Assembly (NCBI GenBank): GCA_033854175.1
Contig: JAWOKN010000056.1
Location: forward strand, 3,736-67,735
Length of the DNA stretch: 64,000 nt
Source of the DNA: Bacteroidota bacterium
Lineage (GTDB): Bacteria > Bacteroidota > Ignavibacteria > UBA10030 > SZUA-254
Reading direction: 5' to 3'
The notes under the pieces were generated by a model. It was given only the letters and a program-made list of their open reading frames with translations, did no database searches and had not been told where the DNA came from. The position numbers and the translations under genes are program-made. Of the stretch, positions 14,047-43,000 are shown piece by piece. How positions within the stretch are numbered: the stretch's first letter is position 1; every line of letters starts with the position of its first letter.

Positions 14047-14057
14047 AGGTACTCCTT

Positions 14058-16669: not shown

Positions 16670-16727
16670 AATATTATCCCTTTCACATTGATACCTGACG
16701 AGCGGGGTATCAGATTTTTAGTCGAGT

Positions 16728-26375: not shown

Positions 26376-27713
26376 ATGAACAACGCACTGACCATTGACC
26401 GTCTGCAGTTCGCCTTCACGGTCTCCTTCCACTATCTCTTCCCGCAGCTGACGATGGGGCTGGCGCTTTTCATCGTGATCCTGAAGTGGCTCGGTTTCAG
26501 GAACAACGACGAAACCTACGACAAGGCGGCAAGGTTCTGGGGGAAGATCTTCGCATTGAATTTCTTCGCCGGTGTCATCACCGGCATACCGATGGAATTC
26601 CAGTTCGGGACCAACTGGGCGCGGTTCTCGAAAATCACCGGCGGCGTGATCGGGCAGACGCTGGCGATGGAGGGGGTATTCTCCTTTTTCCTCGAATCGA
26701 GTTTCCTCGGGCTCTTCCTTTTCGGCGAGAAGAGGCTCGGACCAAGGAAGCACTTCCTCTCGGCGCTTCTCGTCTTCATCGGCTCGTGGTTATCGGGGTA
26801 CATGATCGTGCAGACAGACGCCTGGATGCAGCACCCCGTGGGGTACGAACTCACGGCTGACGGCACCATTCAGCTCACCGACTGGTTTGCCTTGCTCTTC
26901 AACCCGTGGGGATTGTGGCAGTACGCGCACACAATGGCCGGGGCGGTCGTGACTGCCTCGTTCGTGATGATGGCGGTGGGGGCTTATTACCTCTTATCGG
27001 AGAGGGAGAGCGGGCATGCCAGAATCTACCTGCGACACGGCGTCGTGGTGGGGATCGTGGCGTCGGTCATCCTCATTTTTCCGACGGGGGACCAGCAGGG
27101 GAAAAACGTGGCCTACAACCAGCCCGCGACTCTTGCCGCGATGGAATGCGTGTTCAAGTCGAAGGAGGGGGCGGAGCTGATCCTCATCGGGCAGCCCGAC
27201 ATGGAAAAGGAGCGGATGGACAACCCGCTGCACATACCGAAGATGCTCAGCTTCCTCACCTACAACAGGTGGAACGCACGCGTGGTGGGGCTGGACGAGA
27301 TACCGGCGGAGTTACGGCCCGACAACATACCGCTTCTCTATTACACCTATCACATCATGGTGGGGCTGGGGACAATCTTCGTGGCCATACTGGTAACGAG
27401 CATCCTTCTCTTATGGAAGAAAAAACTCTTCACCTCGCGATGGATGCAATGGATACTCCTCTTGAGCTTCCCGTTCCCCTACATTGCCAACACGGCGGGC
27501 TGGATGACGGCTGAACTGGGGCGGCAGCCGTGGCTGGTCTACAATCTCCTCAGGACGGCGGAAGGGACATCGCCGACCGTGGCGGCGGGGAACGCGCTCT
27601 TCACGCTCCTCGGGTTTCTGGGGATGTACCTTGTCGTGGGGGTCGTCTTCATCATGCTGGTCGTCAACATCATCAACGGGGGACCGGAAAAAGTGTCCCG
27701 GGCCGGATACTGA
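26376..27713 (+). CDS. cydA: Cytochrome bd-type quinol oxidase subunit I
   Basis: MNNALTIDRLQFAFTVSFHYLFPQLTMGLALFIV..., GWMTAELGRQPW. Confidence 0.95.
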   Translation: MNNALTIDRLQFAFTVSFHYLFPQLTMGLALFIVILKWLGFRNNDETYDKAARFWGKIFALNFFAGVITGIPMEFQFGTNWARFSKITGGVIGQTLAMEGVFSFFLESSFLGLFLFGEKRLGPRKHFLSALLVFIGSWLSGYMIVQTDAWMQHPVGYELTADGTIQLTDWFALLFNPWGLWQYAHTMAGAVVTASFVMMAVGAYYLLSERESGHARIYLRHGVVVGIVASVILIFPTGDQQGKNVAYNQPATLAAMECVFKSKEGAELILIGQPDMEKERMDNPLHIPKMLSFLTYNRWNARVVGLDEIPAELRPDNIPLLYYTYHIMVGLGTIFVAILVTSILLLWKKKLFTSRWMQWILLLSFPFPYIANTAGWMTAELGRQPWLVYNLLRTAEGTSPTVAAGNALFTLLGFLGMYLVVGVVFIMLVVNIINGGPEKVSRAGY

Positions 27714-27732
27714 TCTTTCAAAGGAACTAGCC

Positions 27733-28767
27733 ATGGAAGCACTCTGGTTCTGGATCATCGCCCTGATGATCGTCGTCTACGTGATCCTGGACGGGTTCGA
27801 TCTCGGGATAGGGGTCATATACTTCCTGATAACCAAAAACGACAGCGAGCGGTCGCTGTTATTGAAGACCATCGCGCACGTATGGGACGGAAACGAAGTC
27901 TGGCTTCTGGCCGGGGGCGGCGTATTATTCCTGGCATTCCCGGCGGTCTATGCGGCATCGTTCAGCGGATTCTACCTCCCCCTGATGATCGTCCTATGGC
28001 TTCTGATGCTGCGCGGCGGAGGAATCGAACTCCGGCATTACGTCCATCATCCGCTCTGGAGAAAATTCTGGGACAGAACATTTTCCGTCTCGAGCCTTCT
28101 TCTGGCGATATTTCTGGGCGCCGCACTGGGTAATGTCGTACGGGGAGTCCCGCTGACACGTGAGGGATACTTCTTCGAGCCGCTCTGGACGACCTTCACG
28201 GTTGTGCCGGAGGCGGGGATACTCGACTGGTTCACGGTCATGATGGGACTGGTGGCGCTGGCGACGCTGACACTGCACGGGGCCGTCTATGTCAGCATGA
28301 AAACGACGGGAGAAATCCAGGCACGGGCGCGGACAATCGGACAGTGGGTCTGGTGGATTGCGTTATTCATGTCCGTCGACATGTTCATCGCGACCTGGAC
28401 CATTCACCCGGATCTCTGGGCGAACTACGCCGAGCATGCGGGGGGATTCATCCTCCCGGTGGGCGGGGTGGCGGGGATACTCGCGACCTATATCGCCATC
28501 GTGCGGAAAAAGGACACGGCTGCATTTTGTTTCTCGACGCTCTACATCATTTCCATGCTGGCGGCGACGGCATTTGCGGTCTATCCGAACCTGTTATTGG
28601 CATCCACGCAGAAGGAATACTCGCTCACGATCTACAACTCGGCCGCCCGGAGTTACGGACTGGGGGCAGCGCTCTACTGGTGGATACCGGGAATTCTGCT
28701 CGCCGCGCTCTACTTCACATATCTTTTCAGGACATTCCGGGGGAAGGTACAACCCTCGGAGGAATAA
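27733..28767 (+). CDS. cydB: Cytochrome bd-type quinol oxidase subunit II
   Basis: ATG 27733 gives MEALWFWIIALMIVVYVILDGFDLGIG... The ORF-track start 27631 overlaps cydA. Confidence 0.9.
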   Translation: MEALWFWIIALMIVVYVILDGFDLGIGVIYFLITKNDSERSLLLKTIAHVWDGNEVWLLAGGGVLFLAFPAVYAASFSGFYLPLMIVLWLLMLRGGGIELRHYVHHPLWRKFWDRTFSVSSLLLAIFLGAALGNVVRGVPLTREGYFFEPLWTTFTVVPEAGILDWFTVMMGLVALATLTLHGAVYVSMKTTGEIQARARTIGQWVWWIALFMSVDMFIATWTIHPDLWANYAEHAGGFILPVGGVAGILATYIAIVRKKDTAAFCFSTLYIISMLAATAFAVYPNLLLASTQKEYSLTIYNSAARSYGLGAALYWWIPGILLAALYFTYLFRTFRGKVQPSEE

Positions 28768-29090
28768 TCCCGGGAGAACAGGCATCAACATCCGGTGGCC
28801 GGCATGCCGGTGGGTGGTGCTTCTTACAAATGAGATTAAAAAATTCCCCTCTTTTCAGGCGTGATAGCTTCCCCGTGTAAATCAAAAAAAAGCGGGACAA
28901 TTTCCATGAATCAGACGACTGAAGGGTGGAATAGTTCTTGCAGATATCGTGGAATTGCGACACTGGCATCCGAGTGGGAACTTCAAAGAAGAAGCACCAT
29001 TCCCGCTCATCGTGGTTACGGATTGAAAACGAACAGATCCGCAGAAGCATAACAGACAGGCACCAAGATACAACAGTGAAGGAACATCGT

Positions 29091-29306
29091 ATGGATCATC
29101 GAATGAACGGGGAAATCGTGGAAATCTACATCAGGGACGGGTCGACGCTTGCGAAAGTGCGCGTGGACGGCACCTATTTTCACGTTCCGCTTCTTCTCCT
29201 GATGAACGCCCATGTGGGCGACCACATCATCATCGACGCCGGAATCGCATTAACAAGGATCGAACGGAAGGCAAAGAGCCGGCAGGCTGCAGAACCGGCG
29301 CTGTAG
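29091..29306 (+). CDS. HypC/HupF-like small OB-fold protein lacking the N-terminal Cys
   Basis: MDHRMNGEIVEIYIRDGSTLAKVRVDGTYFHVPLLLLMNAHVGDHIIIDAGIALTRIE parallels MCL-x-IPG-x-I/V-x-EI...A-x-VD-x-G-G-x-x-x-V-x-L...GD-x-V-L-V-H-x-G-x-A-I. The essential Cys2 is absent. Confidence 0.55.
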   Translation: MDHRMNGEIVEIYIRDGSTLAKVRVDGTYFHVPLLLLMNAHVGDHIIIDAGIALTRIERKAKSRQAAEPAL

Positions 29307-29526: not shown

Positions 29527-32202
29527 ATGATGATCGGCACGCTCATATCCCATTACAAAATACTTGAAAAACTCGGCGAGGGAGGAATGGGTGTGGTATA
29601 CAAGGCGCACGACACAAAGCTCGAGCGCGTGGTTGCGCTGAAATTCCCCCCTCAGGCGCTCACGGCCGACCCGGAGGAGAGGGAGCGGTTTTACCAGGAG
29701 GCCCGATCGGCATCGCAGCTTCTCCACCCGAACGTCTGCACGATCTTTGAGATCAACGAATCGGAGAAGCAAATCTATATTGCCATGGAGTATGTCGACG
29801 GCCCGACCCTCAAGAAACGGATTCAGGCAGACAATCCGATGCCCCTGGGAAAATCCCTTGACATCGCCATCCAGATCTGCAACGGGCTTGTTGCCGCCCA
29901 TGAAAAGGGGATCGTGCACCGGGACATCAAATCCGAGAACATACTGCTGACGGCCAGGGGGGAGGTAAAAATCACCGATTTCGGACTCGCCAAGCTCAAA
30001 GGTGCGGAGAAGCTCACGAAAACAGGAAGTACATTGGGCACTGCCGCCTACATGTCCCCCGAGCAGGCGCGTGGTGAGGATGTCGATGCGAGAAGCGACA
30101 TATTCTCCTGCGGGGTGGTACTGTATGAACTCTTCGCCGGCAGGCTTCCTTTCCGCGGAGAACACCAGGCTGCGATACTCTACTCACTGGTGAACGAAGA
30201 GCCCGCGCCCCTGGCGAGGTTCAATGAGCACGTGTCGCCGGACCTGCAGCATATTGTTTCAAAGGCGCTCGCCAAAGACAGGGAGGACCGTTATCAGCAT
30301 GCCGACGAAATGCTTGCCGACTTGAGGCGGGAACGCAAACGCATGGAGTACGCGCGAACCGGTGTAATCATACAGCCAAAAGTGGTTTCCTCCACGCAAG
30401 AAGTCCAAGCGCAGGAAGCCTCAGACCGTTCGGGAGGCACCAAGCGAGTGATATGGGGCGTCGCCGGTGCTGTCATTCTTCTTGTCGCAGCCGGTATTTA
30501 TCTCACGGTCTGGAAACCCGGACCCAATCAGAGCGCGACAAATTCCGCAATCAGCAAGATTGCGGTACTCCCATTCGAGAACATCGGACCATCCGACAAG
30601 GAATATTTTGCGGACGGTCTCACCGACGAGATACGGACAAAGCTCAGTGGGCTTTCGAATCTGGCCGTCATTGCCCGTGCAAGTTCGATGCAGTACAAAA
30701 AGACCACGAAATCCATCTCGGAAATCGGCACCGAACTCAGTGTCGGTTACCTGTTGCAGGGGACCATACGATGGGAGGAAGGAGGATCGTCCCAGAGTGC
30801 TGTTCACCTTTTGGTAAATCCTTCCCTGGTGAAAATCACCGACGGGACGCAGGTCTGGTCGCAGTCATTCGAAGGGACCCTGTCGAGCGTCTTTCAGATG
30901 CAATCCGACATCGCGCAGCAGGTCGCACGCGCGCTCGAGGTGGCATTGAATCCCAGCGACCAGCAAGTCATCACCTCGAGGCCGACCAACAACGCCGAAG
31001 CGTACGATTACTTTTTACAGGGGCAGCAAAAATTGTATTTGCCGACCTCGGCGGACATGAAAGAGGCGCTTCCGATGTTTGAGAAAGCGATCAAACTTGA
31101 TCCAAAATTTGTCGCCGCCTATGCGGATTTATCCCGTGCGTACGCTTTCGCGACATTTCAGGGAATGAGCCCTGACAGCCTCCTTGTGTTATCGAAGAAA
31201 TCGCTTGACAAGGTCAAAGAACTGGAACCAAATTCGTTTCTGGCAAACTGGTCGGAAGGCTACTACTATTATTACGGGTTCAGAGATTACGACCAGGCAT
31301 TACGGCACTTCACCACGGCACTGAATCTCCAGCCCAACAATGTGGACATCATATCCGCGATCGGGTATGTCAAGCGGAGGCAGGGAAAATTCCAGGAAAG
31401 CCGCGATCTCCTCGCCAGGAGCTGTGATCTTGACCCGCAGGCGTGGCGCAACTGGTTCGAGCTCGGCTATGTAGAGCTCGTCATGCGTCAATATCCTCTG
31501 GCGGACGAACACATGAAGCGGGCGCTCCTGGTTTTCGGCAAGGGAAATGTCGCGGTAGCGGCATATCATTCGCAGGCCATCTTCTCCATGAACGGCGACG
31601 TCAGGGGGGCGCAGGAACTCTTCGACCGGGAGGCCGGCGAAAACAGATCGTGGTTATACAAGATGAGGAGTGCTCAACTCCATCTTGCGGGCGGGAATGT
31701 CGGCGCCGCCATAAATGATCTTTCCCGTGCGGTGCTCTCGGAGCCGGACGTGGATTCCACGGTCTACTACATGTTCTCAGGGCTCCTGCATGAACAATCC
31801 GGGCCCCGTAGTGCAGGGCGTGCTTATTTCGATAGTGCAAGAATTCTCGCAGAAAGAACAGTACACAACGCCCCCAATCAGGCCGTGGCTCACATGAATC
31901 TGGGAATCATCCTGGCTCATCTCGGACAAAAAGCCCGTGCAATTGAGGAGGGGGAAAAGGGGGTACGACTGATGCCGCTGGAAAAGGACGCGCTTGATGA
32001 AGGGCCGAACGCACTCTATGAGTTAGCTCAGATTTACGCTCTCACGGGAGAATCTGACGCTGCAATCGACAAGCTTGAACAGATATTGAGCATTCCAAAC
32101 ATGTACTCGGTCTATTTTGTGCAATCCGATCAGGAGCTTGCATCACTTGCGACGCTGCCCCGGTTTCAGAAATTGCTGGAAAAGTACAAAACTGCGCGGT
32201 AA
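29527..32202 (+). CDS. Ser/Thr protein kinase with TM helix, TolB-N-like periplasmic module and C-terminal TPR repeats
   Basis: Kinase motifs: GEGGMGVVYKA, VALK, HRDIKSENILL, DFGLAK, SPEQ. The TM helix is VIWGVAGAVILLVAAGIYLTVW. The extracytoplasmic part has IAVLPFENIGPSDKEYFADGLTDEI followed by multiple TPR-like repeats. Confidence 0.9.
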   Translation: MMIGTLISHYKILEKLGEGGMGVVYKAHDTKLERVVALKFPPQALTADPEERERFYQEARSASQLLHPNVCTIFEINESEKQIYIAMEYVDGPTLKKRIQADNPMPLGKSLDIAIQICNGLVAAHEKGIVHRDIKSENILLTARGEVKITDFGLAKLKGAEKLTKTGSTLGTAAYMSPEQARGEDVDARSDIFSCGVVLYELFAGRLPFRGEHQAAILYSLVNEEPAPLARFNEHVSPDLQHIVSKALAKDREDRYQHADEMLADLRRERKRMEYARTGVIIQPKVVSSTQEVQAQEASDRSGGTKRVIWGVAGAVILLVAAGIYLTVWKPGPNQSATNSAISKIAVLPFENIGPSDKEYFADGLTDEIRTKLSGLSNLAVIARASSMQYKKTTKSISEIGTELSVGYLLQGTIRWEEGGSSQSAVHLLVNPSLVKITDGTQVWSQSFEGTLSSVFQMQSDIAQQVARALEVALNPSDQQVITSRPTNNAEAYDYFLQGQQKLYLPTSADMKEALPMFEKAIKLDPKFVAAYADLSRAYAFATFQGMSPDSLLVLSKKSLDKVKELEPNSFLANWSEGYYYYYGFRDYDQALRHFTTALNLQPNNVDIISAIGYVKRRQGKFQESRDLLARSCDLDPQAWRNWFELGYVELVMRQYPLADEHMKRALLVFGKGNVAVAAYHSQAIFSMNGDVRGAQELFDREAGENRSWLYKMRSAQLHLAGGNVGAAINDLSRAVLSEPDVDSTVYYMFSGLLHEQSGPRSAGRAYFDSARILAERTVHNAPNQAVAHMNLGIILAHLGQKARAIEEGEKGVRLMPLEKDALDEGPNALYELAQIYALTGESDAAIDKLEQILSIPNMYSVYFVQSDQELASLATLPRFQKLLEKYKTAR

Positions 32203-32339: not shown

Positions 32340-32380
32340 CTTCATTTATGATGAAGAATTATTCAACAGTACGTGTTGAA
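32340..32380. promoter_or_regulatory. Two adjacent palindromes in an AT-rich region (candidate activator binding sites)
   Basis: CTTCAT-ttatg-ATGAAG (32340-32356) and TTCAACA-gtacg-TGTTGAA (32362-32380) lie ~180-220 bp upstream of the sigma54-like element at 32560. Confidence 0.3.
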
Positions 32381-32559
32381 TAAATAAACGCATTCATAAA
32401 TACTTGTTTTGAAATTATTTACACATCTTCAGCAGCCTTCGCCCGGTTTTCTGTAAAATAATTCATCAACTCTTCTTCATCTCAATCCTGAAAAAAAGTT
32501 TCACTCCCCCATCTTCTTACATATTCACCACTTAGCATCACGGTTTTTTCCATAGTTAC

Positions 32560-32575
32560 TGGCATGATATTTACA
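32560..32575 (+). promoter_or_regulatory. Sigma54-like promoter (TGGCAT-N5-TTACA) upstream of the GcvH-like/NrfCD-like operon
   Basis: TGGCAT-GATAT-TTACA, with a predicted TSS ~40 nt upstream of ATG 32626, so the GAAGGAG RBS falls in the leader. The -12 GC is AC, which makes this a weak match. Confidence 0.3.
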
Positions 32576-32625
32576 TAAGTGATGGGTGAATAAATAAGCA
32601 CGCAAGGACAGAAGGAGCAGTGAAA

Positions 32626-33303
32626 ATGACAGTCATATTCGTAATAGCGACGATTATATTCTTCCTCACGCTTGATTGGGTTGTGAGGCGGATAAGGGCA
32701 AGAAAAGCAGCACCGGTAACTGCGGTACACCCGTCGGCATATCCGATACGTGTACCGGAGGGGATATTCTTCACCAGATCGCACACCTGGCTCAATCTTT
32801 TCCCCTCGGGGAAAGTACGGCTCGGAATCGATGATTTTGTGGGCCGCATGGTAGAAAACCCGCAGATCATTTTCCTCAAGAAAAGCGGCGAGAGTATCTC
32901 CCGTGGAGAGCCCCTGTTGACGATGAAGGAAGACGAGCATCTGCTGACCGTCAGATCGCCGATCGACGGGGAGATCGAATCGATCAACGAGGAACTCCCG
33001 CGGCATCCCGACCTTTTGAAGGACCTCCTTTTCAGTGACGGCTGGGCATACACGATCAAGCCGAGAAAGTTCTCTGAAATCAAGGGCTTACTTCTCGGGA
33101 CAGAGACGAGGGAATGGATGCGGGCGGAATTCGGCCGTCTGCGTGATTTCTTTGCGGGGATCTCTCACAACGGCACAATAGCCCCGGCCCTCCTGCAGGA
33201 CGGCGGGCCGCCGATGGCGGGCGTCATGAAAACGATGGACGACGCGGTGTGGCAGAATTTCGAGCATGAGTTCCTCACGATCGAAGAATCTGAAAGGGCA
33301 TAG
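32626..33303 (+). CDS. Membrane-anchored GcvH-fold protein (no lipoyl-lysine), paralogue 1
   Basis: ATG 32626 lies 8 nt after GAAGGAG. The N-terminal TM helix is MTVIFVIATIIFFLTLDWVVRRIRARK. The GcvH-like core is FFTRSHTWLNLFPSGKVRLGIDDFVGRMVENPQIIFLKKSGESISRGEPLLTMKEDEHLLTVRSPIDGEIESINEELPRHPDLLKDLLFSDGWAYTIKP. The C-terminal extension contains LQDGG. Confidence 0.7.
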   Translation: MTVIFVIATIIFFLTLDWVVRRIRARKAAPVTAVHPSAYPIRVPEGIFFTRSHTWLNLFPSGKVRLGIDDFVGRMVENPQIIFLKKSGESISRGEPLLTMKEDEHLLTVRSPIDGEIESINEELPRHPDLLKDLLFSDGWAYTIKPRKFSEIKGLLLGTETREWMRAEFGRLRDFFAGISHNGTIAPALLQDGGPPMAGVMKTMDDAVWQNFEHEFLTIEESERA

Positions 33304-33305
33304 CG

Positions 33306-34124
33306 ATGGCGAGTGCGAAGGCGATGTTAATCGACCTCACGATGTGCATCGGGTGCAATTCGTGTCAGGATGCCTGCAAGAAGGCAAACGGTTTACCCGA
33401 AGGGGAGGAACAGCAGTTATCGGCAACCGCCTATACGGCGCTCAATGAATACAACGGCGTCTATGTCCGGAGGATGTGTCAGCACTGCATCCAGCCGACC
33501 TGTGCATCGGTCTGTCCCGTTGGTGCGTTGAAAAAGACGCCCGAGGGGCCTGTCCTCTACGACGAATCGAAGTGTATCGGCTGCCGGTACTGCATGCAGG
33601 CATGTCCGTTCCAGGTGCCTAGGTACGAGTGGAGCAGCACCTATCCGAGAATCCAGAAATGCCGCTTCTGTGCGGAGAGGCTTGCGAAGGGGATGCCCAC
33701 GGCATGTTCGGAGGCATGTCCGACGGGTGCGACAAAATTCGGCGACCGGGACGAACTGGTGCGCGAGGCCTACCAGCGGATATCCGCGGAACCGGGGAAA
33801 TACATCGACAAGGTCTACGGCCTCCAGGAAGTCGGAGGGACGTCAATACTGTACCTCTCCTCGGTTCCGTTCGAGCAGCTGGGATTCAAGACCCAGCTGG
33901 AGTCCAACGCGCTGCCGCTCCTCACGTGGAACGTGCTGTCGAAGATTCCGAACGTGGTCAGTGTCGGCGGAGTGGCGCTCTTCGGCATCTGGTGGATCAC
34001 CAACCGCCGGATGGAACTCGAGAAAGAGCGAAAAAACGGCCGGGCAAACGGTACGGCGCCGGGGGATGACCATCATTCCCGGAAAGAACAAACCCAACAA
34101 ACCGAGAATGGAGAGAGAGTATGA
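33306..34124 (+). CDS. NrfC/HybA/PsrB/DsrO-type 4x[4Fe-4S] ferredoxin subunit with C-terminal TM anchor, no Tat/Sec signal
   Basis: Four cluster motifs: CIGCNSCQDAC, CQHCIQPTCASVCP, CIGCRYCMQACP and CRFC...CSEACP. The C-terminal helix is VVSVGGVALFGIWWITN. The protein starts MASAKAMLIDLTMCIGC, with no RRxFLK. Confidence 0.9.
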   Translation: MASAKAMLIDLTMCIGCNSCQDACKKANGLPEGEEQQLSATAYTALNEYNGVYVRRMCQHCIQPTCASVCPVGALKKTPEGPVLYDESKCIGCRYCMQACPFQVPRYEWSSTYPRIQKCRFCAERLAKGMPTACSEACPTGATKFGDRDELVREAYQRISAEPGKYIDKVYGLQEVGGTSILYLSSVPFEQLGFKTQLESNALPLLTWNVLSKIPNVVSVGGVALFGIWWITNRRMELEKERKNGRANGTAPGDDHHSRKEQTQQTENGERV

Positions 34125-35323
34125 AACGCAGACTTCAGCAACTGACACTCTGGAAGGTCGTCGCCGGGCTGATCATCCTCAGCGGCCTCATATCAACCTA
34201 CGTCCGTTTCGCAAAAGGGCTGGGGGCGGCGACGCACCTGAGCGATCAATTCCCGTGGGGATTATGGATCGGGTTTGACATCCTGTGCGGCGTGGGGCTT
34301 GCGGCCGGGGGGTTCACGCTGGCTGCGATCGTCTACATCTTCAACATCAGGCGGTTTGAAGCGATCATCCGGCCGACCATCTTGACGGCATTCCTCGGCT
34401 ATCTCCTTGTGATTGCCGCGCTGATGTTCGATCTCGGGCGGCCGCTGCAGATATGGCATGCGATCATCATGTGGAACCATCACTCGGTCATGTTCGAGGT
34501 CGCGTGGTGCGTCATGCTCTACACGACAGTTCTCGCCCTTGAATTTTCGCCGATGCTCTTTGAAAAATTCAGGATGAACAACACGCTGAAGACATTCCAC
34601 AAAATCAGCATACCGCTCATTATCCTCGGGGTGATCCTCTCGACGCTGCACCAGTCGTCGCTCGGCTCGCTCTACCTCATCGTGCCCGAGAAGCTCTACG
34701 GCCTCTGGTATTCCGCCTATCTGCCGGTATTCTTCTACGTCTCGGCGATCGCGGTCGGCTGTGCGATGGTCATCTTCGAATCCATCCTGAGTTCCCGGGC
34801 GTTCCGGAAGAGCCTGGAAACGAACCTCCTTGCGGAGCTGGCCCGCATCAGCGTCGTGGCGCTCGCCGTTTACGCCACGATGAAGATCGTCGACTTGAAG
34901 GACCGCGACGTCATCAGCCTCCTCTTCCTCCCCCGCGCCGAGACCTATTTTTACTGGGCTGAGATCACCGTCGGGGTCATCGCACCGATCATACTTTTCT
35001 CCATCAGAAAAGCCCGTGAGAGTCAGACGGGGTTATTCGCCGGGGCCACGATGATCATCACCGGGTTCATCATGAACCGTCTCAACATCAGTCTGACGGG
35101 GATGGAAGGCTGGGCCGGTCTTTCCTACTTCCCGTCATGGATGGAAATTTCCGTCACCCTCACCATCGTCACGGTGGGGTTCATTGCATTCCGGCTTGCG
35201 GCCAAATATCTGCCGGTGTTCAAGCCCGAACTGAACGTTCCCGAAAAGGAATTCGCACACCCGATCGTCGAGGATCTCCACAGCGTCTCATCGTCGCGGG
35301 AACGCTCGATGATACTGGAATAA
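34121..35323 (+). CDS. NrfD/HybB/PsrC/DsrP-type polytopic quinone-interacting membrane subunit (~10 TM)
   Basis: ATGA overlap with the FeS gene. LSDQFPWGLWIGFDILCGVGLAAGGFTLAAIVYIF is the NrfD-family signature region. About 10 hydrophobic helices are visible. Confidence 0.9.
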   Translation: MKRRLQQLTLWKVVAGLIILSGLISTYVRFAKGLGAATHLSDQFPWGLWIGFDILCGVGLAAGGFTLAAIVYIFNIRRFEAIIRPTILTAFLGYLLVIAALMFDLGRPLQIWHAIIMWNHHSVMFEVAWCVMLYTTVLALEFSPMLFEKFRMNNTLKTFHKISIPLIILGVILSTLHQSSLGSLYLIVPEKLYGLWYSAYLPVFFYVSAIAVGCAMVIFESILSSRAFRKSLETNLLAELARISVVALAVYATMKIVDLKDRDVISLLFLPRAETYFYWAEITVGVIAPIILFSIRKARESQTGLFAGATMIITGFIMNRLNISLTGMEGWAGLSYFPSWMEISVTLTIVTVGFIAFRLAAKYLPVFKPELNVPEKEFAHPIVEDLHSVSSSRERSMILE

Positions 35324-35328
35324 TTGTC

Positions 35329-36087
35329 ATGAACGAGAATCAAAAAAATTACACAATCATCCCTGAAGGAGACTCCCGGTGTGTCTGGATGTCGGCCGGG
35401 ATCCTCAGCTACCAGCTCTGCAACCGCGCATTCGACTGCGACGCATGTCCGCTCGACATGGCGATGCGGCAGCACTTCCCGCGACCCGAGGGGGAGAAGG
35501 ATGAGGCGGCGCCAGGCAGGGAGCGTGAGGAAACAGAACTCCGCGGCGCGTACAGTTACACGGCAACGCATTTCTGGGTAAAGTCGATCTCCACCTCGCT
35601 CTACCGTGTGGGACTTGAACCGGGGATAGCCCACGCATTATTCGTCCCGCGGACCATCGTCTTGCCCGCCTCGGGTGAAACGCTCCAGGCATCGCAGCCC
35701 TGTCTCTGGTTCGTGATGGAGGCCGCGACCGTCCCCTTCGACGCATTCGCCGACGGCGTGGTTGTGACGCAGAATGTGCTCTTGCCGGAGCGGCCCTACA
35801 AAGTCCATTACCATCCGTACGACCAGGGATGGCTCTTTGACATGAAGTTCGACGCAGCGGGGGGTGAGCCGGATCTCCTGACCGCGGTCCAGGCGGAGAA
35901 ACTCTACGGCAGGGACCAGAAACTCTTCCGTGACAGGCTCCGCGACACGCTACAGACCGCGCCGGCTGGAGCGACACTCCAGGACGGCGGACAGCTTTTG
36001 AAAAATCTCCCTGAAATGCTCGGACCGAAGAAATACTTCGATCTCATCGAGGAGATCTTTCTGAAAAGGGGTGTCACAAAAAAATAA
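35329..36087 (+). CDS. Cys4-motif + GcvH-fold protein (no lipoyl-lysine), paralogue 2
   Basis: ATG 35329 lies 5 nt after the nrfD-like stop. The N-terminus has CVWMSAGILSYQLCNRAFDCDACP (C-x12-C-x5-C-x2-C). The GcvH-like core is YTATHFWVKSISTSLYRVGLEPGIAHALF...ADGVVVTQNVLLPERPYKVHYHPYDQGWLFDMKF. The C-terminal extension contains LQDGG, as in 32626..33303. Confidence 0.65.
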   Translation: MNENQKNYTIIPEGDSRCVWMSAGILSYQLCNRAFDCDACPLDMAMRQHFPRPEGEKDEAAPGREREETELRGAYSYTATHFWVKSISTSLYRVGLEPGIAHALFVPRTIVLPASGETLQASQPCLWFVMEAATVPFDAFADGVVVTQNVLLPERPYKVHYHPYDQGWLFDMKFDAAGGEPDLLTAVQAEKLYGRDQKLFRDRLRDTLQTAPAGATLQDGGQLLKNLPEMLGPKKYFDLIEEIFLKRGVTKK

Positions 36088-36252
36088 CCCGCCGCGAACA
36101 GGCTGGACGGGGGTACCGCTCACCCGGGGGTGTACAGGGGTGGGCGGTAGTTATTCGGGGTGGGGGTGATCCGGTAAAACCACCTTTAACCATTTTGTGA
36201 TAAAATCCCCGAATTCATTTCAAATCTGATAACTCCGGGGGAAAAGACGGGC

Positions 36253-36278
36253 CGGAGAGAAGCCAAATCTCCGTTTTT
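36253..36278 (+). terminator. Rho-independent terminator of the four-gene operon
   Basis: CGGAGA-gaagccaaa-TCTCCG followed by T5. Confidence 0.6.
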
Positions 36279-36301: not shown

Positions 36302-36317
36302 TGGCACGAGAATTGAC
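36302..36317 (+). promoter_or_regulatory. Sigma54-like element (TGGCACG-N4-TTGAC) just upstream of the sensor kinase gene
   Basis: The -24 half (TGGCACG) is perfect, and this is the only promoter-like element in the 54 nt between the terminator and ATG 36333. The -12 is TTGA, and the predicted TSS (~36328) leaves only a ~5-nt leader, so it is doubtful. Confidence 0.3.
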
Positions 36318-36332: not shown

Positions 36333-37982
36333 ATGAAGGCATTCCGTTCGCTCAGTGTGAGGGTATTTGCGGGGTCATTTCTCCTCCTTGTGACCCTCCT
36401 GGGGCTCTATTCCTATTTTGCGATAAAGTTTCACACCGAACAGATGATGGAGATCGTCCTGGGAAACGCAAGCCGCATCAGCGACATCATCAAGAACTCG
36501 ACCCACTACAGCATGCTCCTCAACAGGAAGGAGGACGTCTACCAGACGATCCTCACCATCGGCAAGGAAAAGGGGGTTGAAGGGATACGGATTTACAACA
36601 AGCGGGGAGAAATCATGGCCTCCTCCCGCACCGAAGAAAAACTGCAGATTGTCGACATGCATGCTGAAGCCTGTTACGTCTGCCATGAGAAGGGAAAACC
36701 CCTGGAATCGCTCGCATCGGACAACAGGATGCGGATCTACACCTCCCCGAAGGGGTACAGGGTACTGGGTTTGATCAACCCCATCCACAACGAGCCAAGC
36801 TGTTCGAATGCCGATTGCCATGCTCATCCGCCTGATAAAACCATACTCGGTGTACTCGACGTTCGGATGTCGCTGGAAAACGTCGACACGGCAATCGCCG
36901 AAGCGCACGCCAAGATGATCAGCTGGGCGGTCGGGGGAGTTCTCCTTGCATCGCTCCTCATCTCGGTCCTCCTCTACAGAACCGTGCATCGGCCCGTCAA
37001 GCGGCTCACGCTGGGGACGCATGAAGTCTCCTCCGGCAACCTCGATCTCCGGATACCCATACACTCGAAGGACGAACTGGGGCAGCTTGCCGAATCGTTC
37101 AATTCGATGACGACCTCATTGCGCAACCTCATTGAAGAGAAAAACACCTGGTCGCGCGAGCTGGAGGAGCGGGTCCGTGAAAAAACCGCCGAGTTGAAGC
37201 ACATTCACGAGCAGATCCTGCAGATTGAAAAGATGACATCGCTCGGGAAGCTCGCGGCGACCGTTGCGCACGAACTGAACAACCCCCTGGAAGGGATCCT
37301 GACCTACGCGAAGCTCCTGGCGAAGCAGCTCAGGAAAGCCGAATTCTCTGCGGACCGGTCAAAGGAATTTCTCGAGGAACTCAATCTCATCATCCAGGAA
37401 ACGGACCGGTGCGGAACGATCGTGAAGAACCTCCTCCTCTTTTCCCGGAAGCAGGTCGGCGAATTCGCGCTTGCGCCTGCGCGGCAGATCGTGGAGAAGG
37501 CCCAGCGTCTCGTGGATCACCACTTCCACATCTCCAACGTGAAATTCGAGGCCACGTACGCGCCTGAGGACGTGTCGCTCATGTGCGACGAAATGCAGAT
37601 CCAGCAGGCCTTGATTGCGCTCTTTGTCAACGCGGTTGAAGCCATGCCGGGGGGCGGCACACTGCGCGTCGATGTCTCGCAGCGTTCGAAGGATGACAAC
37701 ATCATCCTCCGCATTTCGGACACCGGTACGGGGATAGCGGAGGAGGATCTCCACAACATCTTCGAACCATTTTTCACAACAAAAAAGGAGGGTCAGGGTG
37801 TCGGCCTCGGCCTCTCGGTTGTCTACGGCATCGTCGTCCGTCACGGCGGCACGATCAGTGTGGAGTCGAGTCTCAACAAGGGAACGGCATTCACGCTGAC
37901 CTTCCCGGCGCTTGAGCGGAGCACCAAGGGAATCCCGGAGCCGGAGGCGAAAAAATCACCCATTGATCCACACTATGCATAA
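36333..37982 (+). CDS. Sensor histidine kinase with periplasmic domain carrying two heme-c-type motifs
   Basis: Two TM helices flank a ~165-aa periplasmic domain with CYVCH (aa 114-118) and CSNADCH (aa 157-163). It also has a HAMP domain, an H-box (VAHELNNPLEG) and an HATPase domain (NAVEAM, DTGTGI, GVGLGLS). Confidence 0.9.
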   Translation: MKAFRSLSVRVFAGSFLLLVTLLGLYSYFAIKFHTEQMMEIVLGNASRISDIIKNSTHYSMLLNRKEDVYQTILTIGKEKGVEGIRIYNKRGEIMASSRTEEKLQIVDMHAEACYVCHEKGKPLESLASDNRMRIYTSPKGYRVLGLINPIHNEPSCSNADCHAHPPDKTILGVLDVRMSLENVDTAIAEAHAKMISWAVGGVLLASLLISVLLYRTVHRPVKRLTLGTHEVSSGNLDLRIPIHSKDELGQLAESFNSMTTSLRNLIEEKNTWSRELEERVREKTAELKHIHEQILQIEKMTSLGKLAATVAHELNNPLEGILTYAKLLAKQLRKAEFSADRSKEFLEELNLIIQETDRCGTIVKNLLLFSRKQVGEFALAPARQIVEKAQRLVDHHFHISNVKFEATYAPEDVSLMCDEMQIQQALIALFVNAVEAMPGGGTLRVDVSQRSKDDNIILRISDTGTGIAEEDLHNIFEPFFTTKKEGQGVGLGLSVVYGIVVRHGGTISVESSLNKGTAFTLTFPALERSTKGIPEPEAKKSPIDPHYA

Positions 37983-37997: not shown

Positions 37998-39344
37998 ATG
38001 AACAACGATATATCCATACTCATTGTCGACGATGAAAAGGTCGTCCGCGAATCCCTCTCGAAGTGGTTCAAGGAAGACGACTTCATCGTGGGCGCATCAG
38101 AAAACGCGGCTGAAGCCCTGAAACAGCTCCAGGTGCGGAAATGGGACATCATTCTCCTCGACATCAAAATGCCGGGGATGGACGGGATGGAGTTACAGCA
38201 GCGAATCCGGGAGATCGACCCCGGAGCGACGATCATCTTCATCACGGCGCACGCCTCGGTCGACACGGCGGTCCAGGCCCTGAAGGCGGGGGCGTTCGAT
38301 TACATCGCGAAGCCGATCGACCCCGACTACCTGTCGCATCTGATCCAGAACGCCATCAAGCAGCGGATCCTGACGGGAGAAAACATCCGTCTGAAGGAGC
38401 AGATCACCGAATTCGCGAAAGTCGATGAGATCATCGGCGACTCCCCGCAGATGAAGAAGGTCTTCGAACTGATCGAAACGGTGGCAAAGACCGACACGAC
38501 GGTCATGATCCGGGGCGAAAGCGGAACGGGGAAGGAGCTCATCGCGCGGGCGATTCACGGCAACAGCGAACGGCGGTATTTTCCCATCGTCGCCATCAAC
38601 TGCGGGGCATTGCCGGAGGGAATACTGGAAAGCGAACTCTTCGGTCATGAGCGGGGTGCGTTTACCGGGGCGCAGTACAGGAGAAAGGGAAAAATCGAGC
38701 TGGCCGACGGCGGCACATTATTTCTTGACGAGGTCGGCAACATCGGGATGAAGACCCAGATGGACCTCCTCCGTGTAATCGAGACAAAGCAATTTTCGCG
38801 TGTCGGGGGAAACGAGCTGATCAAGGTGGACTTCAGGACCATCTGCGCGACAAACAGGGATCTCGAGAAGGCCGTTCAGGAGGGCACCTTCCGTGAAGAC
38901 CTCTATTACCGTCTCAACGTCTTCTCCGTCCTCGTCCCCCCCTTGCGCGAGCGGAAGTCGGACATCCCCCTGCTGGCAAATTACTTTTTGAAAAAATACT
39001 CGCGATCGATGGGGAAGCCGATCGTGACCATCTCCTCGGACGCGATGGATCTGATGGTCAAATACAACTGGCCCGGGAACATCCGCGAGCTGGAAAACGC
39101 GATAGAGCGGGCGATGGTGGTCGGAAAGCCCCCCTGCATCAAGGCGGTGGATCTGCCGATACAGTTCTCCGATCTCATTGCGGCACCTTCGCTCGGATCT
39201 CTGGCATCGATGGAAAAAAGCCACATCGCCGAGATCCTCCGGATGAACAACTGGAACATCTCCCGGTCCGCGGAAGTCCTGCAGATCGACCGGGTCACTC
39301 TCTACAACAAGATCGAAAAATATGGCCTGAAAAAGCCGCAGTGA
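37998..39344 (+). CDS. Sigma54-dependent response regulator (NtrC/AtoC family enhancer-binding protein)
   Basis: Receiver domain (ILIVDDE...ILLDIKMPGMDG), AAA+ domain (GESGTGKE, ERGAFTGA, GTLFLDEV) and a C-terminal Fis-type HTH (RSAEVLQIDRVTLYNKIEKYGL). Confidence 0.95.
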   Translation: MNNDISILIVDDEKVVRESLSKWFKEDDFIVGASENAAEALKQLQVRKWDIILLDIKMPGMDGMELQQRIREIDPGATIIFITAHASVDTAVQALKAGAFDYIAKPIDPDYLSHLIQNAIKQRILTGENIRLKEQITEFAKVDEIIGDSPQMKKVFELIETVAKTDTTVMIRGESGTGKELIARAIHGNSERRYFPIVAINCGALPEGILESELFGHERGAFTGAQYRRKGKIELADGGTLFLDEVGNIGMKTQMDLLRVIETKQFSRVGGNELIKVDFRTICATNRDLEKAVQEGTFREDLYYRLNVFSVLVPPLRERKSDIPLLANYFLKKYSRSMGKPIVTISSDAMDLMVKYNWPGNIRELENAIERAMVVGKPPCIKAVDLPIQFSDLIAAPSLGSLASMEKSHIAEILRMNNWNISRSAEVLQIDRVTLYNKIEKYGLKKPQ

Positions 39345-39880
39345 CGACAGCCATCCACATCATGACGACGGCGTCGCACCCGGTAACCGATCTCGGACAC
39401 ATTTCACACACCATACAGAGGATATTCAGCCTACCGGTCGACGTGGTCAAGGGGAGTTTAAACCCGGAGCGTGCGTTCGACAGCTCCCGCCGTCAGTACA
39501 ATTCCACAGCACTCATTGCGCACATCCTCTCCTCCAACGGGGGTGACGGGAGGAAAATCCTCGGGCTTGTGGATGTCGATCTCTTCATCCCGATCCTCAC
39601 CTTTGTCTTCGGCGAGGCACAATTCACCGGCTGTGTTGCTGTCGTCTCCTCCTTCCGTCTTGCGAACCAGTTCTACGGGCTTGAACACGATCCGATCTTA
39701 CTCCGTGACCGGGTCGAAAAGGAAATCGTGCATGAGCTCGGCCACACATTCGGTCTCCACCACTGCAGGCATTTTGACTGTGTCATGCGCTCCTCGACCT
39801 ATGTGGAGGAGATCGACTTAAAAAAGGTGGAGATGTGCGGCACATGTTCGGAAAAACTCCAGCTCATCACCGCGCACTAG
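39341..39880 (+). CDS. amzA: Archaemetzincin-family zinc metalloprotease
   Basis: RRQYNSTALIAHIL, DLFIPILTFVFGEAQ and the signature VHELGHTFGLHHCRHFDCVMRSS...CGTC (HExxHxxGxxHC-x4-CxM...CxxC). A GTGA start/stop overlap links it to the response regulator gene; ATG 39362 is an alternative start. Confidence 0.85.
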   Translation: MTTAIHIMTTASHPVTDLGHISHTIQRIFSLPVDVVKGSLNPERAFDSSRRQYNSTALIAHILSSNGGDGRKILGLVDVDLFIPILTFVFGEAQFTGCVAVVSSFRLANQFYGLEHDPILLRDRVEKEIVHELGHTFGLHHCRHFDCVMRSSTYVEEIDLKKVEMCGTCSEKLQLITAH

Positions 39881-40027: not shown

Positions 40028-40043
40028 TGGAATGATTCTTGCA
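40028..40043 (+). promoter_or_regulatory. Sigma54-like promoter (TGGAAT-N5-TTGCA) upstream of PFOR
   Basis: TGGAAT-GATTC-TTGCA has correct GG-N10-GC spacing. The predicted TSS (~40054) lies 44 nt upstream of ATG 40098, with GAAAGGA in the leader. Confidence 0.45.
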
Positions 40044-40097: not shown

Positions 40098-43000
40098 ATG
40101 CCAGATGTAGCGGCAGGAAGAACATTACGGCAGAAGGTCACGCTTGACGGCAACGAAGCGGCTGCCTTCTCCGCGCACAAATTAAACGAAGTCATAGCAA
40201 TCTACCCCATCACCCCCTCCTCCAACATGGGGGAATGGTCGGACGAATGGTCGTCGCTCGGGAGAAAAAACCTCTGGGGGACGGTACCTCTTGTCGTCGA
40301 AATGCAGAGTGAAGGGGGAGCTTCGGGGGCGGTCCACGGGGCGCTGCAGGCCGGCGCGCTCTCGACCACGTTCACATCGTCACAGGGACTCCTCCTGATG
40401 ATCCCGAACATGTTCAAGATCGCGGGCGAACTGACCTCGACCGTCTTCCACATCGCGGCGCGCACGGTAGCGACCCACGCCCTCTCCATATTCGGCGATC
40501 ACAGCGACGTCATGGCGGTCCGGTCGGCGGGCTGGGCGATGCTGGCTTCGAACTCGATACAGGAGATCATGGACTTTGCCCTGATTGCGACGGCGGCGAC
40601 GCTTGAATCGCGTGTTCCGTTTGTCCATTTCTTTGACGGATTCCGGTCATCGCACGAGGTGATGAAAATCGAACAGCTTTGCGAGGACGACTTCCGGGCG
40701 ATGATGGATGACAAGCTCATCTTCCAGCACCGGGCGCGGGGGCTCTCGCCGGAGCATCCCGTCATGCGCGGATCGGCGCAGAACCCCGACGTCTTCTTCC
40801 AGGCCCGGGAAACCGTGAACCCCTACTATCTCGCATGTCCCGCGATCGTCCAGAAAACGATGGACAAATTCGCGCGTGTTGTCGGCCGGAAATACGAGCT
40901 CTTCCAGTACGTCGGTGCGGCCGATGCTGAGCGGATCATCATCATGATGGGATCCGGTGCGGAAACCGCCGAGGAGACGGTGGAGTATTTGAACCGGAAA
41001 GGCGGCAAGGTGGGATTACTCAAGGTCCGGCTCTTCCGGCCCTTCTCCATCGAGCATTTTTTGAAGGCGCTCCCCTCCTCGACCAAGTCGATTGCGGTAC
41101 TCGACCGGACGAAGGAGCCGGGAAGCACAGGGGAACCGCTCTACCAGGACGTTACCACAGCATTAAGCGAAGCCTTTGCCGGCGGCACGTCGCCCCTCAC
41201 GTCGTTCCCGAAAATCATCGGCGGCCGATACGGCCTCTCGTCGAAAGAATTCACACCGGCGATGGTGAAAGCGGTCTACGACGAACTTCAGAAGCCGGCC
41301 CCCAAAAACCACTTCACCGTCGGGATCAAGGATGACGTCACCCACACGAGTCTGTCGTACGACGCGAGTTTCACGACCGAAGCGGACGATGTGATCCGGG
41401 CCATCTTCTACGGTCTCGGAGCGGACGGGACCGTGAGTGCGAACAAAAATTCAATCAAGATCATCGGCGAGGACACCGACAATTTTGCGCAGGGGTATTT
41501 CGTCTACGACTCCAAGAAATCCGGATCGACGACCGTCTCCCATCTGCGTTTCGGACCCCGTCCGATCCACTCGACCTATCTGATCTCGCAGGCAAATTTC
41601 GTCGCATGTCATCAGTGGTTCTTCCTCGAAAAATACGACGTTTTGCAGCCCGTCATCCAGGGCGGAACGTTCCTTCTGAACAGCTCGTTCGGGCCCCAGG
41701 AAGTCTGGGACAACCTGCCGGTCAACATCCAGAAGCACATCATCGAGAAGAAGCTCAAATTCTACGTCATCGACGCCTACAACGTGGCGAAAGAAACAGG
41801 GATGGGCGGAAGGATCAACACCATCATGCAGACATGTTTCTTCGCCATATCCGGTGTACTCCCCCGGGAGGACGCCATCAAGGCGATCAAGCACTCCGTC
41901 GAAAAGACCTACGGCAAGAAGGGGGAGGATGTTGTCAGGCAGAACTTCATGGCCATCGACAAGACGCTGGCCAACCTCTTCGAGGTCAAGGTACCCTCGA
42001 AGGTCACGAGCACGATAACGATGCCCGACACCGTATCACCGAAGGCGCCCAAATACATCCGGGAAGTCACGGCGGAAATCATCGCGGGTTTCGGTGACAG
42101 GCTCCCGGTGAGTTCGATGCCCGTCGACGGGACATTCCCGGTCGGATCGGCGCAGTGGGAAAAGCGAAACATTGCTTTGGAGATTCCGGTATGGGAACCC
42201 GAAATCTGCATACAGTGCAACAAGTGCATCCTGGTCTGTCCGCACGCAACCATACGGACCAAGGTCTTCGATCCGAAACTCCTTGGGGGCGCGCCCGCGA
42301 CATTCAAGTCGATCGACTTCAAGGGGATGGAATACAAGGGTATGAAATACTCCATCCAGGTCGCCCCGGAAGACTGTACGGGGTGCGGGCTCTGTGTGGA
42401 CATCTGTCCTGCGAAGAGCAAGACCATGACCAAGGTCAAGGCCATCAACATGAAACCGCAGCCACCGATACGCGAGGCCGAGCGTGACAACTACGACTAC
42501 TTCCTGTCGCTTCCGGAAGTCGACCGGCGGACCGTCAAGGTTGACAACATCAAAGGATCGCAGTTCCTGCAGCCGCTCTTTGAATACTCCGGGGCATGTT
42601 CGGGCTGTGGCGAGACACCCTACGTAAAACTCGTCAGCCAGCTTTTCGGCGACAGGTGTGTTGTAGCAAATGCGACCGGTTGTTCCTCCATCTACGGCGG
42701 CAACCTCCCGACCACACCATGGACGGCGAACAAGGACGGAAGGGGGCCGGCATGGTCGAATTCACTCTTTGAAGACAATGCGGAATTCGGGCTCGGCATG
42801 CGGCTGACCATTGACAAGCACACCGAGATGGCGCGGGAGCTCGTGAAAAAGCTCTCAACATCGATCGGTGAAAACCTTGCCACGGCGATCCTCAATGCCA
42901 ATCAATCCGACGAAGCCGGCATCCACGAGCAGCGCGAGCGGGTACAGTTCCTGAAGGACAAGCTGCGCGAGCTTGCCACCCCTGATGGCAACAATCTCCT

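Follow-up and report, generated by a model that had tools for sequence, protein, structure and literature searches.

Few quinone-coupling units of anaerobic respiration are as widespread as NrfCD-type modules, whose wiring and regulation are still debated. Here, we analyzed such a module in a stretch of 64,000 nucleotides (the window) from an Ignavibacteria genome (Bacteroidota bacterium, GenBank assembly GCA_033854175.1, contig JAWOKN010000056.1, positions 3,736 to 67,735), in which a ferredoxin gene (g2) and an NrfD-family gene (g3), together the FeS/NrfD pair, lie between two genes (g1 and g4) for proteins with the fold of the glycine cleavage H protein, GcvH. Among the described systems, the pair resembles HybA/HybB of Escherichia coli hydrogenase 2 and HmcB/HmcC of the Desulfovibrio Hmc complex, which also combine a four-cluster ferredoxin anchored by a transmembrane (TM) helix with a 10-TM NrfD subunit devoid of cofactors. 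NrfD proteins in general carry no cofactors and have their quinone site on the periplasmic side (PMC6303296, PMC8076601), and NrfCD modules can operate alone, delivering electrons to soluble periplasmic proteins (PMC6303296). In the sulfite:quinone oxidoreductase SoeABC, an NrfC-like FeS subunit without a signal peptide and an NrfD-like anchor face the cytoplasm, and SoeC is expected to be inverted (PMC8076601).

Compared with HybAB and HmcBC, the FeS subunit of the window lacks a twin-arginine translocation (Tat) signal, the flanking proteins have the GcvH fold and are followed by a two-component system, and all equivalog scores lie under their cutoffs. The best NCBIfam matches of g2 were HmcB (254 bits, cutoff 420) and HybA (199 bits, cutoff 263), with the alignment to HmcB opening at model position 35, that is, past the signal peptide, and those of g3 were HmcC (342 bits, cutoff 550) and HybB (299 bits, cutoff 450). 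No HybO/HybC hydrogenase genes were found in the window or in the Pfam-annotated loci, and no 16-heme HmcA, cytochrome b HmcE, or HdrD-like HmcF in the operon or in the Pfam-annotated syntenic loci. Membership in an Hmc, Hyb, Dsr, or Qrc complex was rejected on these scores and absent partner genes, and a decayed remnant of a hydrogenase operon was rejected because the open reading frames (ORFs) are intact and conserved in about 80 species. SoeABC is alike in its signal-less FeS subunit and NrfD-like anchor, but it has a molybdopterin catalytic subunit and an SoeC that is expected to be inverted, whereas here there is no catalytic subunit and g3 is not inverted. A literature search returned nothing on the locus or on a GcvH-fold signaling domain; the NrfD gene-cluster survey of Duarte et al. 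2021, which could list the locus, lay outside its scope. A preliminary description, made from the sequence before any database search, knew of no complex of this composition; with membership in Hmc, Hyb, or Soe not found and nothing in the literature searched, the composition does appear to be undescribed.

The regulatory [NiFe] hydrogenases HupUV/HoxBC work with a kinase (HupT/HoxJ) and an NtrC-type regulator (HupR/HoxA), so that an enzyme-derived sensor feeds a sigma-54 regulator. The locus is similar in that subunits derived from a respiratory enzyme stand beside a histidine kinase and a sigma-54-type regulator and might act as a redox sensor. However, the proteins are unrelated, no hydrogenase subunits are present, the sensor role would have to be inferred, and there are additional components: the GcvH-fold family of g1 and g4 (hereafter GcvH-DGG), an M54 peptidase, and a heme-c kinase domain. 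A second parallel is offered by TorT-TorS and LuxP-LuxQ, in which periplasmic binding proteins are accessory co-sensors of two-component systems. The commonest form of GcvH-DGG likewise has a binding-protein-like domain encoded directly upstream of a kinase, but this domain is fused to GcvH-DGG through a TM helix, and it is absent from the window, where the FeS/NrfD pair is found instead. With respect to the carrier proteins GcvH, LbpA, and the GcvH-L of Streptococcus and Staphylococcus, g1 and g4 differ in having no lipoyl lysine and an added extension of about 70 aa, and GcvH-DGG proteins differ in their varied N-terminal modules (TM anchor, Cys motif, binding-protein-like domain, or receiver) and in their gene neighborhood. 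LbpA itself has a conserved lipoate-binding lysine, and its genes are consistently linked to sHdr and lipoate ligase genes (PMC6067878).

A seven-gene cassette with an optional FeS/NrfD pair

The genes of the locus are the following (window positions).

g1: 32626-33303 (alternative start 32620), plus strand, TM-anchored GcvH-fold protein (Pfam GCV_H, 6e-13)
g2: 33306-34124, plus strand, HybA/HmcB-like ferredoxin with four [4Fe-4S] motifs (16 Cys) and a C-terminal TM anchor (Fer4_11)
g3: 34121-35323, plus strand, 10-TM NrfD-family subunit of the HybB/HmcC type (Pfam NrfD, 3e-20)
g4: 35329-36087, plus strand, soluble Cys-rich GcvH-fold protein with an LQDGG extension (Pfam GCV_H, 4e-9)
Kinase: 36333-37982, plus strand, sensor histidine kinase with TM helix, periplasmic domain, TM helix, HAMP, HisKA, and HATPase (Pfam)
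Regulator: 37998-39344, plus strand, NtrC/AtoC-type sigma-54-dependent response regulator (Pfam Response_reg, Sigma54_activat, HTH_8)
M54: 39341-39880, plus strand, archaemetzincin (peptidase M54) with HExxHxxGxxH (Pfam match and NCBIfam archmetzin)
PFOR: 40098-43733, plus strand, pyruvate:ferredoxin oxidoreductase (TIGR02176, 1882 bits)

The four coupled plus-strand genes of the preliminary description were confirmed with all their junctions: 2 nt between g1 and g2, an ATGA overlap between g2 and g3, and 5 nt between g3 and g4. The start of g1 was placed at the ATG at 32626 because its homologues begin with MTV(L/I)F. Pfam bit scores were 73.5 for NrfD in g3 (cutoff 25.8) and 83 for Fer4_11 in g2. 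The regulator and M54 genes overlap by 4 nt; the regulator scored 473 bits against NCBIfam AtoC, under the cutoff, and the peptidase 162 bits against archmetzin, over the 145-bit cutoff.

A scan of one genome per species yielded 80 loci (designated by L numbers where they must be told apart), the majority from Ignavibacteria or other Bacteroidota and a few assigned to Acidobacteriota and Eisenbacteria, and their genes were called by profile searches with hidden Markov models built from our own alignments. One of the carriers is a metagenome-assembled genome of Ignavibacterium album (L026). Most loci long enough to hold it show the order g1(-g1a)-g2-g3-g4-kinase-regulator-M54, in which g1a is an extra TM-anchored paralogue. 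This order persists in metagenomic contigs at 37 to 87% protein identity to the window, the regulator lies downstream of the kinase throughout the profiled loci, and M54 comes after the regulator in most loci whose length allows both to be seen. The four-gene arrangement is not a product of chance, its order being conserved across about 80 species-level genomes. The four genes are the front half of a seven-gene cassette, and the idea of a self-contained module had to be given up: a kinase with heme-c motifs, the sigma-54 regulator, and the M54 peptidase come next across these species.

The invariant core of the cassette consists of a GcvH-DGG protein, the kinase, the regulator, and the peptidase, and the FeS/NrfD pair is optional. 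Loci L074, L078, L042, L079, L082, L086, and L092 hold the four core components without the pair. Those of Acidobacteriota (L074 and L078) have g1, g4, kinase, regulator, and M54 only, and in the Bacteroidales loci, among them that of the isolate Tangfeifania diversioriginum DSM 27063 (L082), a single long GcvH-DGG protein goes with kinase, regulator, and M54. The genes on either side of this four-gene unit in L082 and L086 are unannotated and do not belong to the cassette, and several are on the opposite strand. A catalytic subunit adjoins the FeS/NrfD pair in none of the roughly 80 loci, and no molybdopterin, hydrogenase, or Hdr genes were found among the window and locus genes examined by Pfam family. 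The earlier claim that no catalytic gene lies nearby thus held for the adjoining genes but not for the wider neighborhood, which includes PFOR, a cytochrome bd, and a NapH-like gene.

A variant arrangement was seen in two Ignavibacteriaceae metagenome-assembled genomes (L038 and L040). A multiheme cytochrome c of 380 to 391 aa directly follows a Tat-type FeS/NrfD pair, a gene with the architecture TM-receiver (REC)-GcvH lies directly upstream of the pair, two receiver-GcvH fusions stand in for the sigma-54 regulator, and M54 is missing. The genes of this variant cluster are located at 6959-8134 and 10938-12143 in L038 and at 12907-14049, 15989-16813, and 16892-18055 in L040.

GcvH-DGG as a putative cytoplasmic transducer

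The preliminary description had assigned g1 and g4 to the GcvH fold and taken them for paralogues that cannot be lipoylated. The Pfam matches listed above make the fold unambiguous, and an alignment spanning the GcvH domain and the LQDGG extension (24% identity over 170 aa, E = 6e-10) identifies the two proteins as paralogues. Aligned with E. coli GcvH, the lipoyl-lysine site (8 residues before a conserved Pro) is Glu in g1 and Ala in g4, as described before, and it varies among the orthologues (E/G/N in g1, A/G/E/S in g4). A neighboring hairpin position is occupied by K, R, or H in most paralogues and varies in g4. The C-terminal extension is about 70 aa long and helical, with an invariant DGG, and a fold search that included it matched the GcvH core alone. 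In many loci, g1 is preceded by g1a (L001 6647-7315, L009 9251-9982, and L010 9311-9982). Both g1a and the long forms of Bacteroidales (L082, L083, and L086) have a conserved Lys one residue off the canonical lipoyl-lysine site, at a position that is Arg or His in g1.

The g1 protein consists of an N-terminal TM helix (N-out), the sequence RRIRARK, the GcvH-fold domain, and the helical C-terminal extension with LQDGG. Its AlphaFold2 model places the TM helix at residues 2 to 28 and the GcvH core at residues 48 to 150 with high pLDDT, the DGG loop being of low confidence. In 50 orthologues, the mean number of Lys and Arg residues (K+R) rose from 0.06 ahead of the TM helix to 4.0 behind it. The g4 protein has cysteines at C18, C31, C37, and C40 (C-x12-C-x5-C-x2-C) and another at C125. 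Its N-terminal Cys motif is complete in 59 of 64 orthologues and absent from one clade. The spacings x5 and x2, together with a further Cys that is conserved in the beta domain, are reminiscent of the sensor clusters in FNR and Wbl proteins, and by this analogy the Cys module of g4 probably binds an Fe-S cluster.

Beyond the cassette genes of the window, an exhaustive search of a representative library returned 966 clusters of the GcvH-DGG family at E < 1e-30. Among the best 150 of these 966 clusters, most proteins are 530 to 595 aa long with the module at the C terminus. This long form comprises a signal peptide, a PstS-like PBP_like_2 domain, a TM helix, GCV_H, and the DGG extension (Pfam). 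Public annotation of these relatives is generic, either [quoted passage not shown] or "hypothetical." Additionally, the module is fused to receiver domains in L038, L040, and L068; the TM-REC-GcvH form was confirmed by Pfam, and a second, soluble REC-GcvH-like fusion was read by eye from the sequence only. The module is predicted to be cytoplasmic because of the charge pattern around the TM helix of g1 and because, in the long form, it follows a periplasmic domain and a TM helix.

Since the FeS/NrfD pair is optional, the input fusions are varied, the module is predicted to be cytoplasmic, and the hairpin has no conserved Lys, GcvH-DGG appears to behave as a cytoplasmic transducer or adaptor and not as a redox carrier. 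The alternative is that g1 and g4 are swinging-arm carriers in the manner of GcvH or LbpA, bearing lipoate or another covalent group that is oxidized or reduced by the FeS/NrfD module. With an unconserved Glu or Ala at the canonical site, a neighboring basic position that may be K, R, or H, scores of 41 and 31 bits for g1 and g4 against the GcvH equivalog TIGR00527 (cutoff 116), and fusions of the domain to receiver and periplasmic binding-protein domains, this account is very improbable, although the GcvH fold is clear and some paralogues absent from the window (g1a and the Bacteroidales long forms) keep the Lys one residue away. The neighborhood also argues against it, since no Hdr or lipoate ligase genes were found in the window or the Pfam-annotated loci, and no lipoyl synthase or sHdr genes in the latter, unlike the setting of LbpA genes (PMC6067878). 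A lipoyl carrier was rejected on the combination of missing Lys, low equivalog scores, neighborhood, and fusions. The related proposal of the preliminary description, in which the GcvH-fold proteins are the redox partners of the FeS subunit, does not agree with their occurrence without the pair or their fusion to PstS-like and receiver domains, and it is weakened further because the sister FeS subunit is Tat-exported, and thus periplasmic, while the GcvH domain is predicted to be cytoplasmic.

Heme-c motifs, sigma-54-type motifs, and the linkage to PFOR

Between its two TM helices, the kinase has a periplasmic segment with CYVCH at residue 114 and CSNADCH at residue 157. Both CxxCH and C-x4-CH(A/S)H occur in 14 of the 15 kinase orthologues displayed (from Ignavibacteria, Acidobacteriota, and Bacteroidales), the second motif being unmatched in L090. 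The sensor domain also has a faint Pfam match to the heme-c chemoreceptor sensor domain Mcp40H-20, and the Cys-His motifs are putative attachment sites for c-type heme. Sigma-54-type motifs were located at the following positions.

32560-32575, plus strand: TGGCATGATATTTACA, a -24/-12-like motif about 50 nt upstream of g1
36302-36317, plus strand: TGGCACGAGAATTGAC, upstream of the kinase gene
40028-40043, plus strand: TGGAATGATTCTTGCA, upstream of PFOR
45256-45271, plus strand: TGGCACAGATGTTGCA, exact consensus, 72 nt upstream of the NapH/MauN-like gene
28927, plus strand: sigma-54-like motif upstream of a HypC-like ORF

A TGGCACG-N4-TT motif stands at a comparable position before the first GcvH-like gene in five of seven loci (the window, L001, L004, L006, and L008). 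The same or a similar motif precedes the kinase gene in L004 and L006, and the motif upstream of PFOR is kept in L006 and L009. These motifs may serve as sigma-54 promoters. PFOR lies 4 kb downstream of the four genes. Of 40 loci of type I, the Tat-less type treated below, 22 have PFOR or a four-subunit 2-oxoacid:ferredoxin oxidoreductase (OFOR) no more than 10 kb away, versus 0 of 10 loci of type II or without the pair. From its upstream motif, PFOR is a likely member of the regulon.

The FeS/NrfD pair and its sidedness

The 16 Cys of g2, arranged in four ferredoxin motifs, are invariant in 14 orthologues, and the best match to the Protein Data Bank (PDB) by sequence was FdnH (1kqf_B, 1e-28). 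For g3, no PDB relative was detectable by sequence, and no solved structure containing such a complex was found. The g3 protein has ten hydrophobic segments, is colinear over its full length with E. coli HybB and with the Tat-type variant, and keeps the HybB residues R89, Y99, E148, and H184 (residue list from PMC8076601).

Two types of the pair can be distinguished. In type I (about 70 species, window included), g2 begins with M-x-x-K-K-A-L-L-I-D, and neither g2 of the window nor any of these orthologues has a Tat motif. The type II FeS subunit, from Bacteroidales and some Ignavibacteria, carries a classical RRxF(L/F)K signal; consequently, the loss is specific to type I. The absence of a signal peptide in g2 had been stated in the preliminary description, together with the reservation that a corrected start might reveal a cryptic Tat signal. 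Such a signal is excluded because the start of g2 abuts the stop of g1 and the ORF cannot extend upstream, and the in-frame translations upstream of g2 orthologues contain no hydrophobic signal region.

The two types of g3 align colinearly with HybB, with charged loops in common. In 50 type I sequences, mean K+R was 16.5 on the side of the N and C termini versus 5.3 on the opposite side, and the periplasmic-side loops are nearly invariant. These features indicate that g3 has the canonical N-in/C-in orientation; an inverted subunit, as proposed for SoeC, was rejected on the K+R counts and on the colinearity with HybB and Tat-type g3. For the tail anchor of g2, mean K+R in 50 type I sequences was 0.32 over the 15 residues that precede the TM helix but 4.5 beyond it, where an invariant RR and a charged tail of 18 to 41 aa follow. 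Topology rules would therefore place the FeS domain in the periplasm, as in HybA. Some FeS subunits without a Tat signal of their own (DmsB, FdnH, and QrcC, for example) are exported together with a Tat-bearing partner. No ORF with a Tat signal was found in the 64-kb window, and no recurrent one in the flanks of the other loci, where the search pattern was strict and missed some true Tat signals. The result is a paradox of sidedness, in which the predicted topology points to the periplasm and yet no export route is visible for g2.

The preliminary description had expected NrfCD-like modules to dock a periplasmic catalytic subunit and to have a Tat-exported FeS subunit. This holds only in part, as such modules can run alone (PMC6303296) and FeS subunits may lack their own Tat signal; since NrfCD modules without a catalytic subunit are known, the "orphan" status of the pair is not unusual in itself. 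Its suggestion that the FeS subunit may face the cytoplasm agrees with the missing export signal and the PFOR linkage but not with the canonical orientation of g3 or the charges around the tail anchor of g2.

One account of these observations makes the pair a regulated respiratory effector with the FeS subunit in the cytoplasm. Electrons from PFOR-reduced ferredoxin would pass, perhaps via a putative Fe-S site of g4, to g2, g3, menaquinone, and cytochrome bd, with g1 and g4 as docking subunits and the two-component system merely switching the operon on. In its favor, g2 has neither a Tat nor a Sec signal in about 70 species, with no room for a hidden one; a Tat-bearing partner is missing from the operon and the window, and none recurs in the flanks of other loci; and the retention of the signal in the sister type makes the loss a property of this type. 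Furthermore, PFOR or OFOR accompanies more than half of the type I loci and none of the others (see above), cytochrome bd lies upstream in several loci, the Cys-bearing g4 goes with type I in 59 of 64 cases, and SoeABC provides a precedent for a cytoplasmic NrfC-like subunit (PMC8076601). However, g3 is not inverted, and because NrfD has no cofactors (PMC6303296), a cytoplasmic g2 on a canonical g3 would have no electron path to the periplasmic quinone site. The tail anchor of g2, with its RR and charged tail, predicts the FeS domain to be outside. The association with g4 is also imperfect, as L029 pairs a Tat-type g2 with a Cys-bearing g4, one clade without the Cys module of g4 retains a Tat-less g2, and g1 and g4 exist without g2 and g3. 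We regard this account as unlikely, though with a weight that deserves attention.

The same topology is what an ordinary periplasm-facing HybAB/NrfCD module would have. Its partners would be soluble or encoded elsewhere (cytochromes c, or a Tat-exported enzyme that carries g2 along), and the GcvH-DGG proteins would be cytoplasmic subunits gating its activity or proton path in response to phosphorylation, a ligand, or the redox state. It agrees with the canonical orientation of g3, with the positive-inside charges of g2, and with the ability of NrfCD to work alone with soluble periplasmic proteins (PMC6303296). In the sister type, the FeS subunit has its Tat signal, and in L038 and L040 the multiheme cytochrome c follows g2-g3 directly, with the TM-REC-GcvH gene directly upstream. 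Moreover, a C-terminal motif, (I/V/W)x(E/K)(D/E)L(x)(S/T/L)(V/I)S (..EDLxSVS..), is conserved in type I g3 on the cytoplasmic side about 25 residues past the last TM helix (window 35200-35323); it is absent from HybB and type II g3 and could serve as a docking peptide. Set against this are the missing export route for g2 in about 70 species, the absence of a periplasmic partner gene from type I loci, and the cassettes without the pair, which show that GcvH-DGG has another primary partner. On balance, an ordinary periplasmic module is an improbable explanation.

A possible menaquinone-linked redox sensor

The reading that we favor, tentatively and with somewhat less than even confidence, is that the cassette encodes a menaquinone-linked redox-sensing complex controlling sigma-54 promoters, including that of PFOR. 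GcvH-DGG would be a protein-protein transducer whose constant partners are the heme-c kinase, the sigma-54 regulator, and archaemetzincin and whose inputs vary: a binding-protein-like domain, a receiver domain, the Cys/Fe-S module of g4, or the bare TM tether of g1. Between two GcvH-DGG genes, the HybA/HybB-like pair would be an intact quinone-reactive module in equilibrium with the menaquinone pool, added as an input in Ignavibacteria, where it would report the redox state of that pool or of the periplasm. At the cytoplasmic face, g1 and g4 might read the redox or conformational state of the pair, perhaps via the conserved g3 tail, and the hemes of the kinase could possibly do so from the periplasm. 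The signal would then adjust the output of kinase and regulator, and the regulator would drive the sigma-54 promoters of this operon, of its own genes, of PFOR, and of the NapH-like gene. The sequence data show the gene content and synteny, the GcvH fold without its lipoyl lysine, the domain fusions, the cytoplasmic placement of GcvH-DGG, the dispensability of g2 and g3, and the canonical orientation of g3. In this scheme, we infer every physical contact, the Fe-S cluster of g4, the heme binding of the kinase, the use of the sigma-54 promoters, and the direction of information flow.

Several observations weigh against such a sensor. All 16 Cys of g2 and the HybB channel residues are conserved, which fits a working enzyme at least as well. 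A sigma-54 promoter before g1 fits an effector operon under the adjacent two-component system equally well, and the linkage of type I loci to PFOR/OFOR could reflect electron flow and not co-regulation. The -12 element of the g1 motif is degenerate, and for this reason the motif is suggestive only; across the window, 8 sigma-54 motifs were found versus 3.9 expected, which is not significant alone. Finally, the export route of g2 is left unexplained.

A broader proposal is that the GcvH fold was recruited as a cytoplasmic signal domain in a widespread, unrecognized family (about 1,000 clusters) together with a heme-c kinase, a sigma-54 regulator, and archaemetzincin, and that a HybAB-type module was captured as a redox input in Ignavibacteria, with the FeS subunit either crossing the membrane without a recognizable Tat route or docking on the cytoplasmic face of a canonical NrfD. 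Taken as a whole, this is doubtful but quite possible. That the GcvH-DGG system is of a new kind is a realistic possibility.

Genomic neighborhood

The remaining genes around the cassette include the following.

Cytochrome bd: 26376-28767, upstream of the cassette
OsmC: 25819-26253
NapH/MauN-like membrane polyferredoxin (Fer4_5): 45328-46578, plus strand

Cytochrome bd is also found upstream in several other loci, and a gene pair of Rrf2 and Fer4_5 downstream of the cassette recurs in L004, L006, and L009. Recurrent neighbors with redox or oxidative-stress functions in the window and in L006, L008, and L009 are cytochrome bd, OsmC, rubrerythrin, thioredoxins, hemerythrin, Rrf2, glutamate dehydrogenase, and PPDK.

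An ORF of 72 aa resembling HypC/HupF (29090-29306, plus strand) lacks the essential N-terminal Cys and has no Pfam match. It lies immediately before g1 in L004 and L006; in the window, the two are separated by a Ser/Thr kinase of 891 aa that has TPR repeats (29527-32202, plus strand). At 3289-5205 (plus strand), a 638-aa multiheme cytochrome c has MtrC/MtrF-like and cytochrome c552 matches, paired CXXCH motifs, and a terminal Por_Secre_tail domain of the type IX secretion system (T9SS), from which it may be secreted or surface exposed. Two proteins of the window have T9SS sorting domains.

Implications

The cassette joins an NrfCD-type module to GcvH-fold proteins that are not lipoylated and to heme-c/sigma-54 signaling in about 80 species, often near PFOR and cytochrome bd. 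If GcvH-DGG is a transducer, a classic carrier fold gains a new role, and a large family now annotated as "glycine cleavage H / phosphate-binding" can be named. If the FeS subunit is periplasmic, its export is a concrete puzzle. If it is cytoplasmic, it would be a candidate for a ferredoxin:menaquinone link in Ignavibacteria and related Bacteroidota. Either crossing of the membrane without Tat or cytoplasmic docking on a canonical NrfD would, if true, be unprecedented in the NrfCD family.

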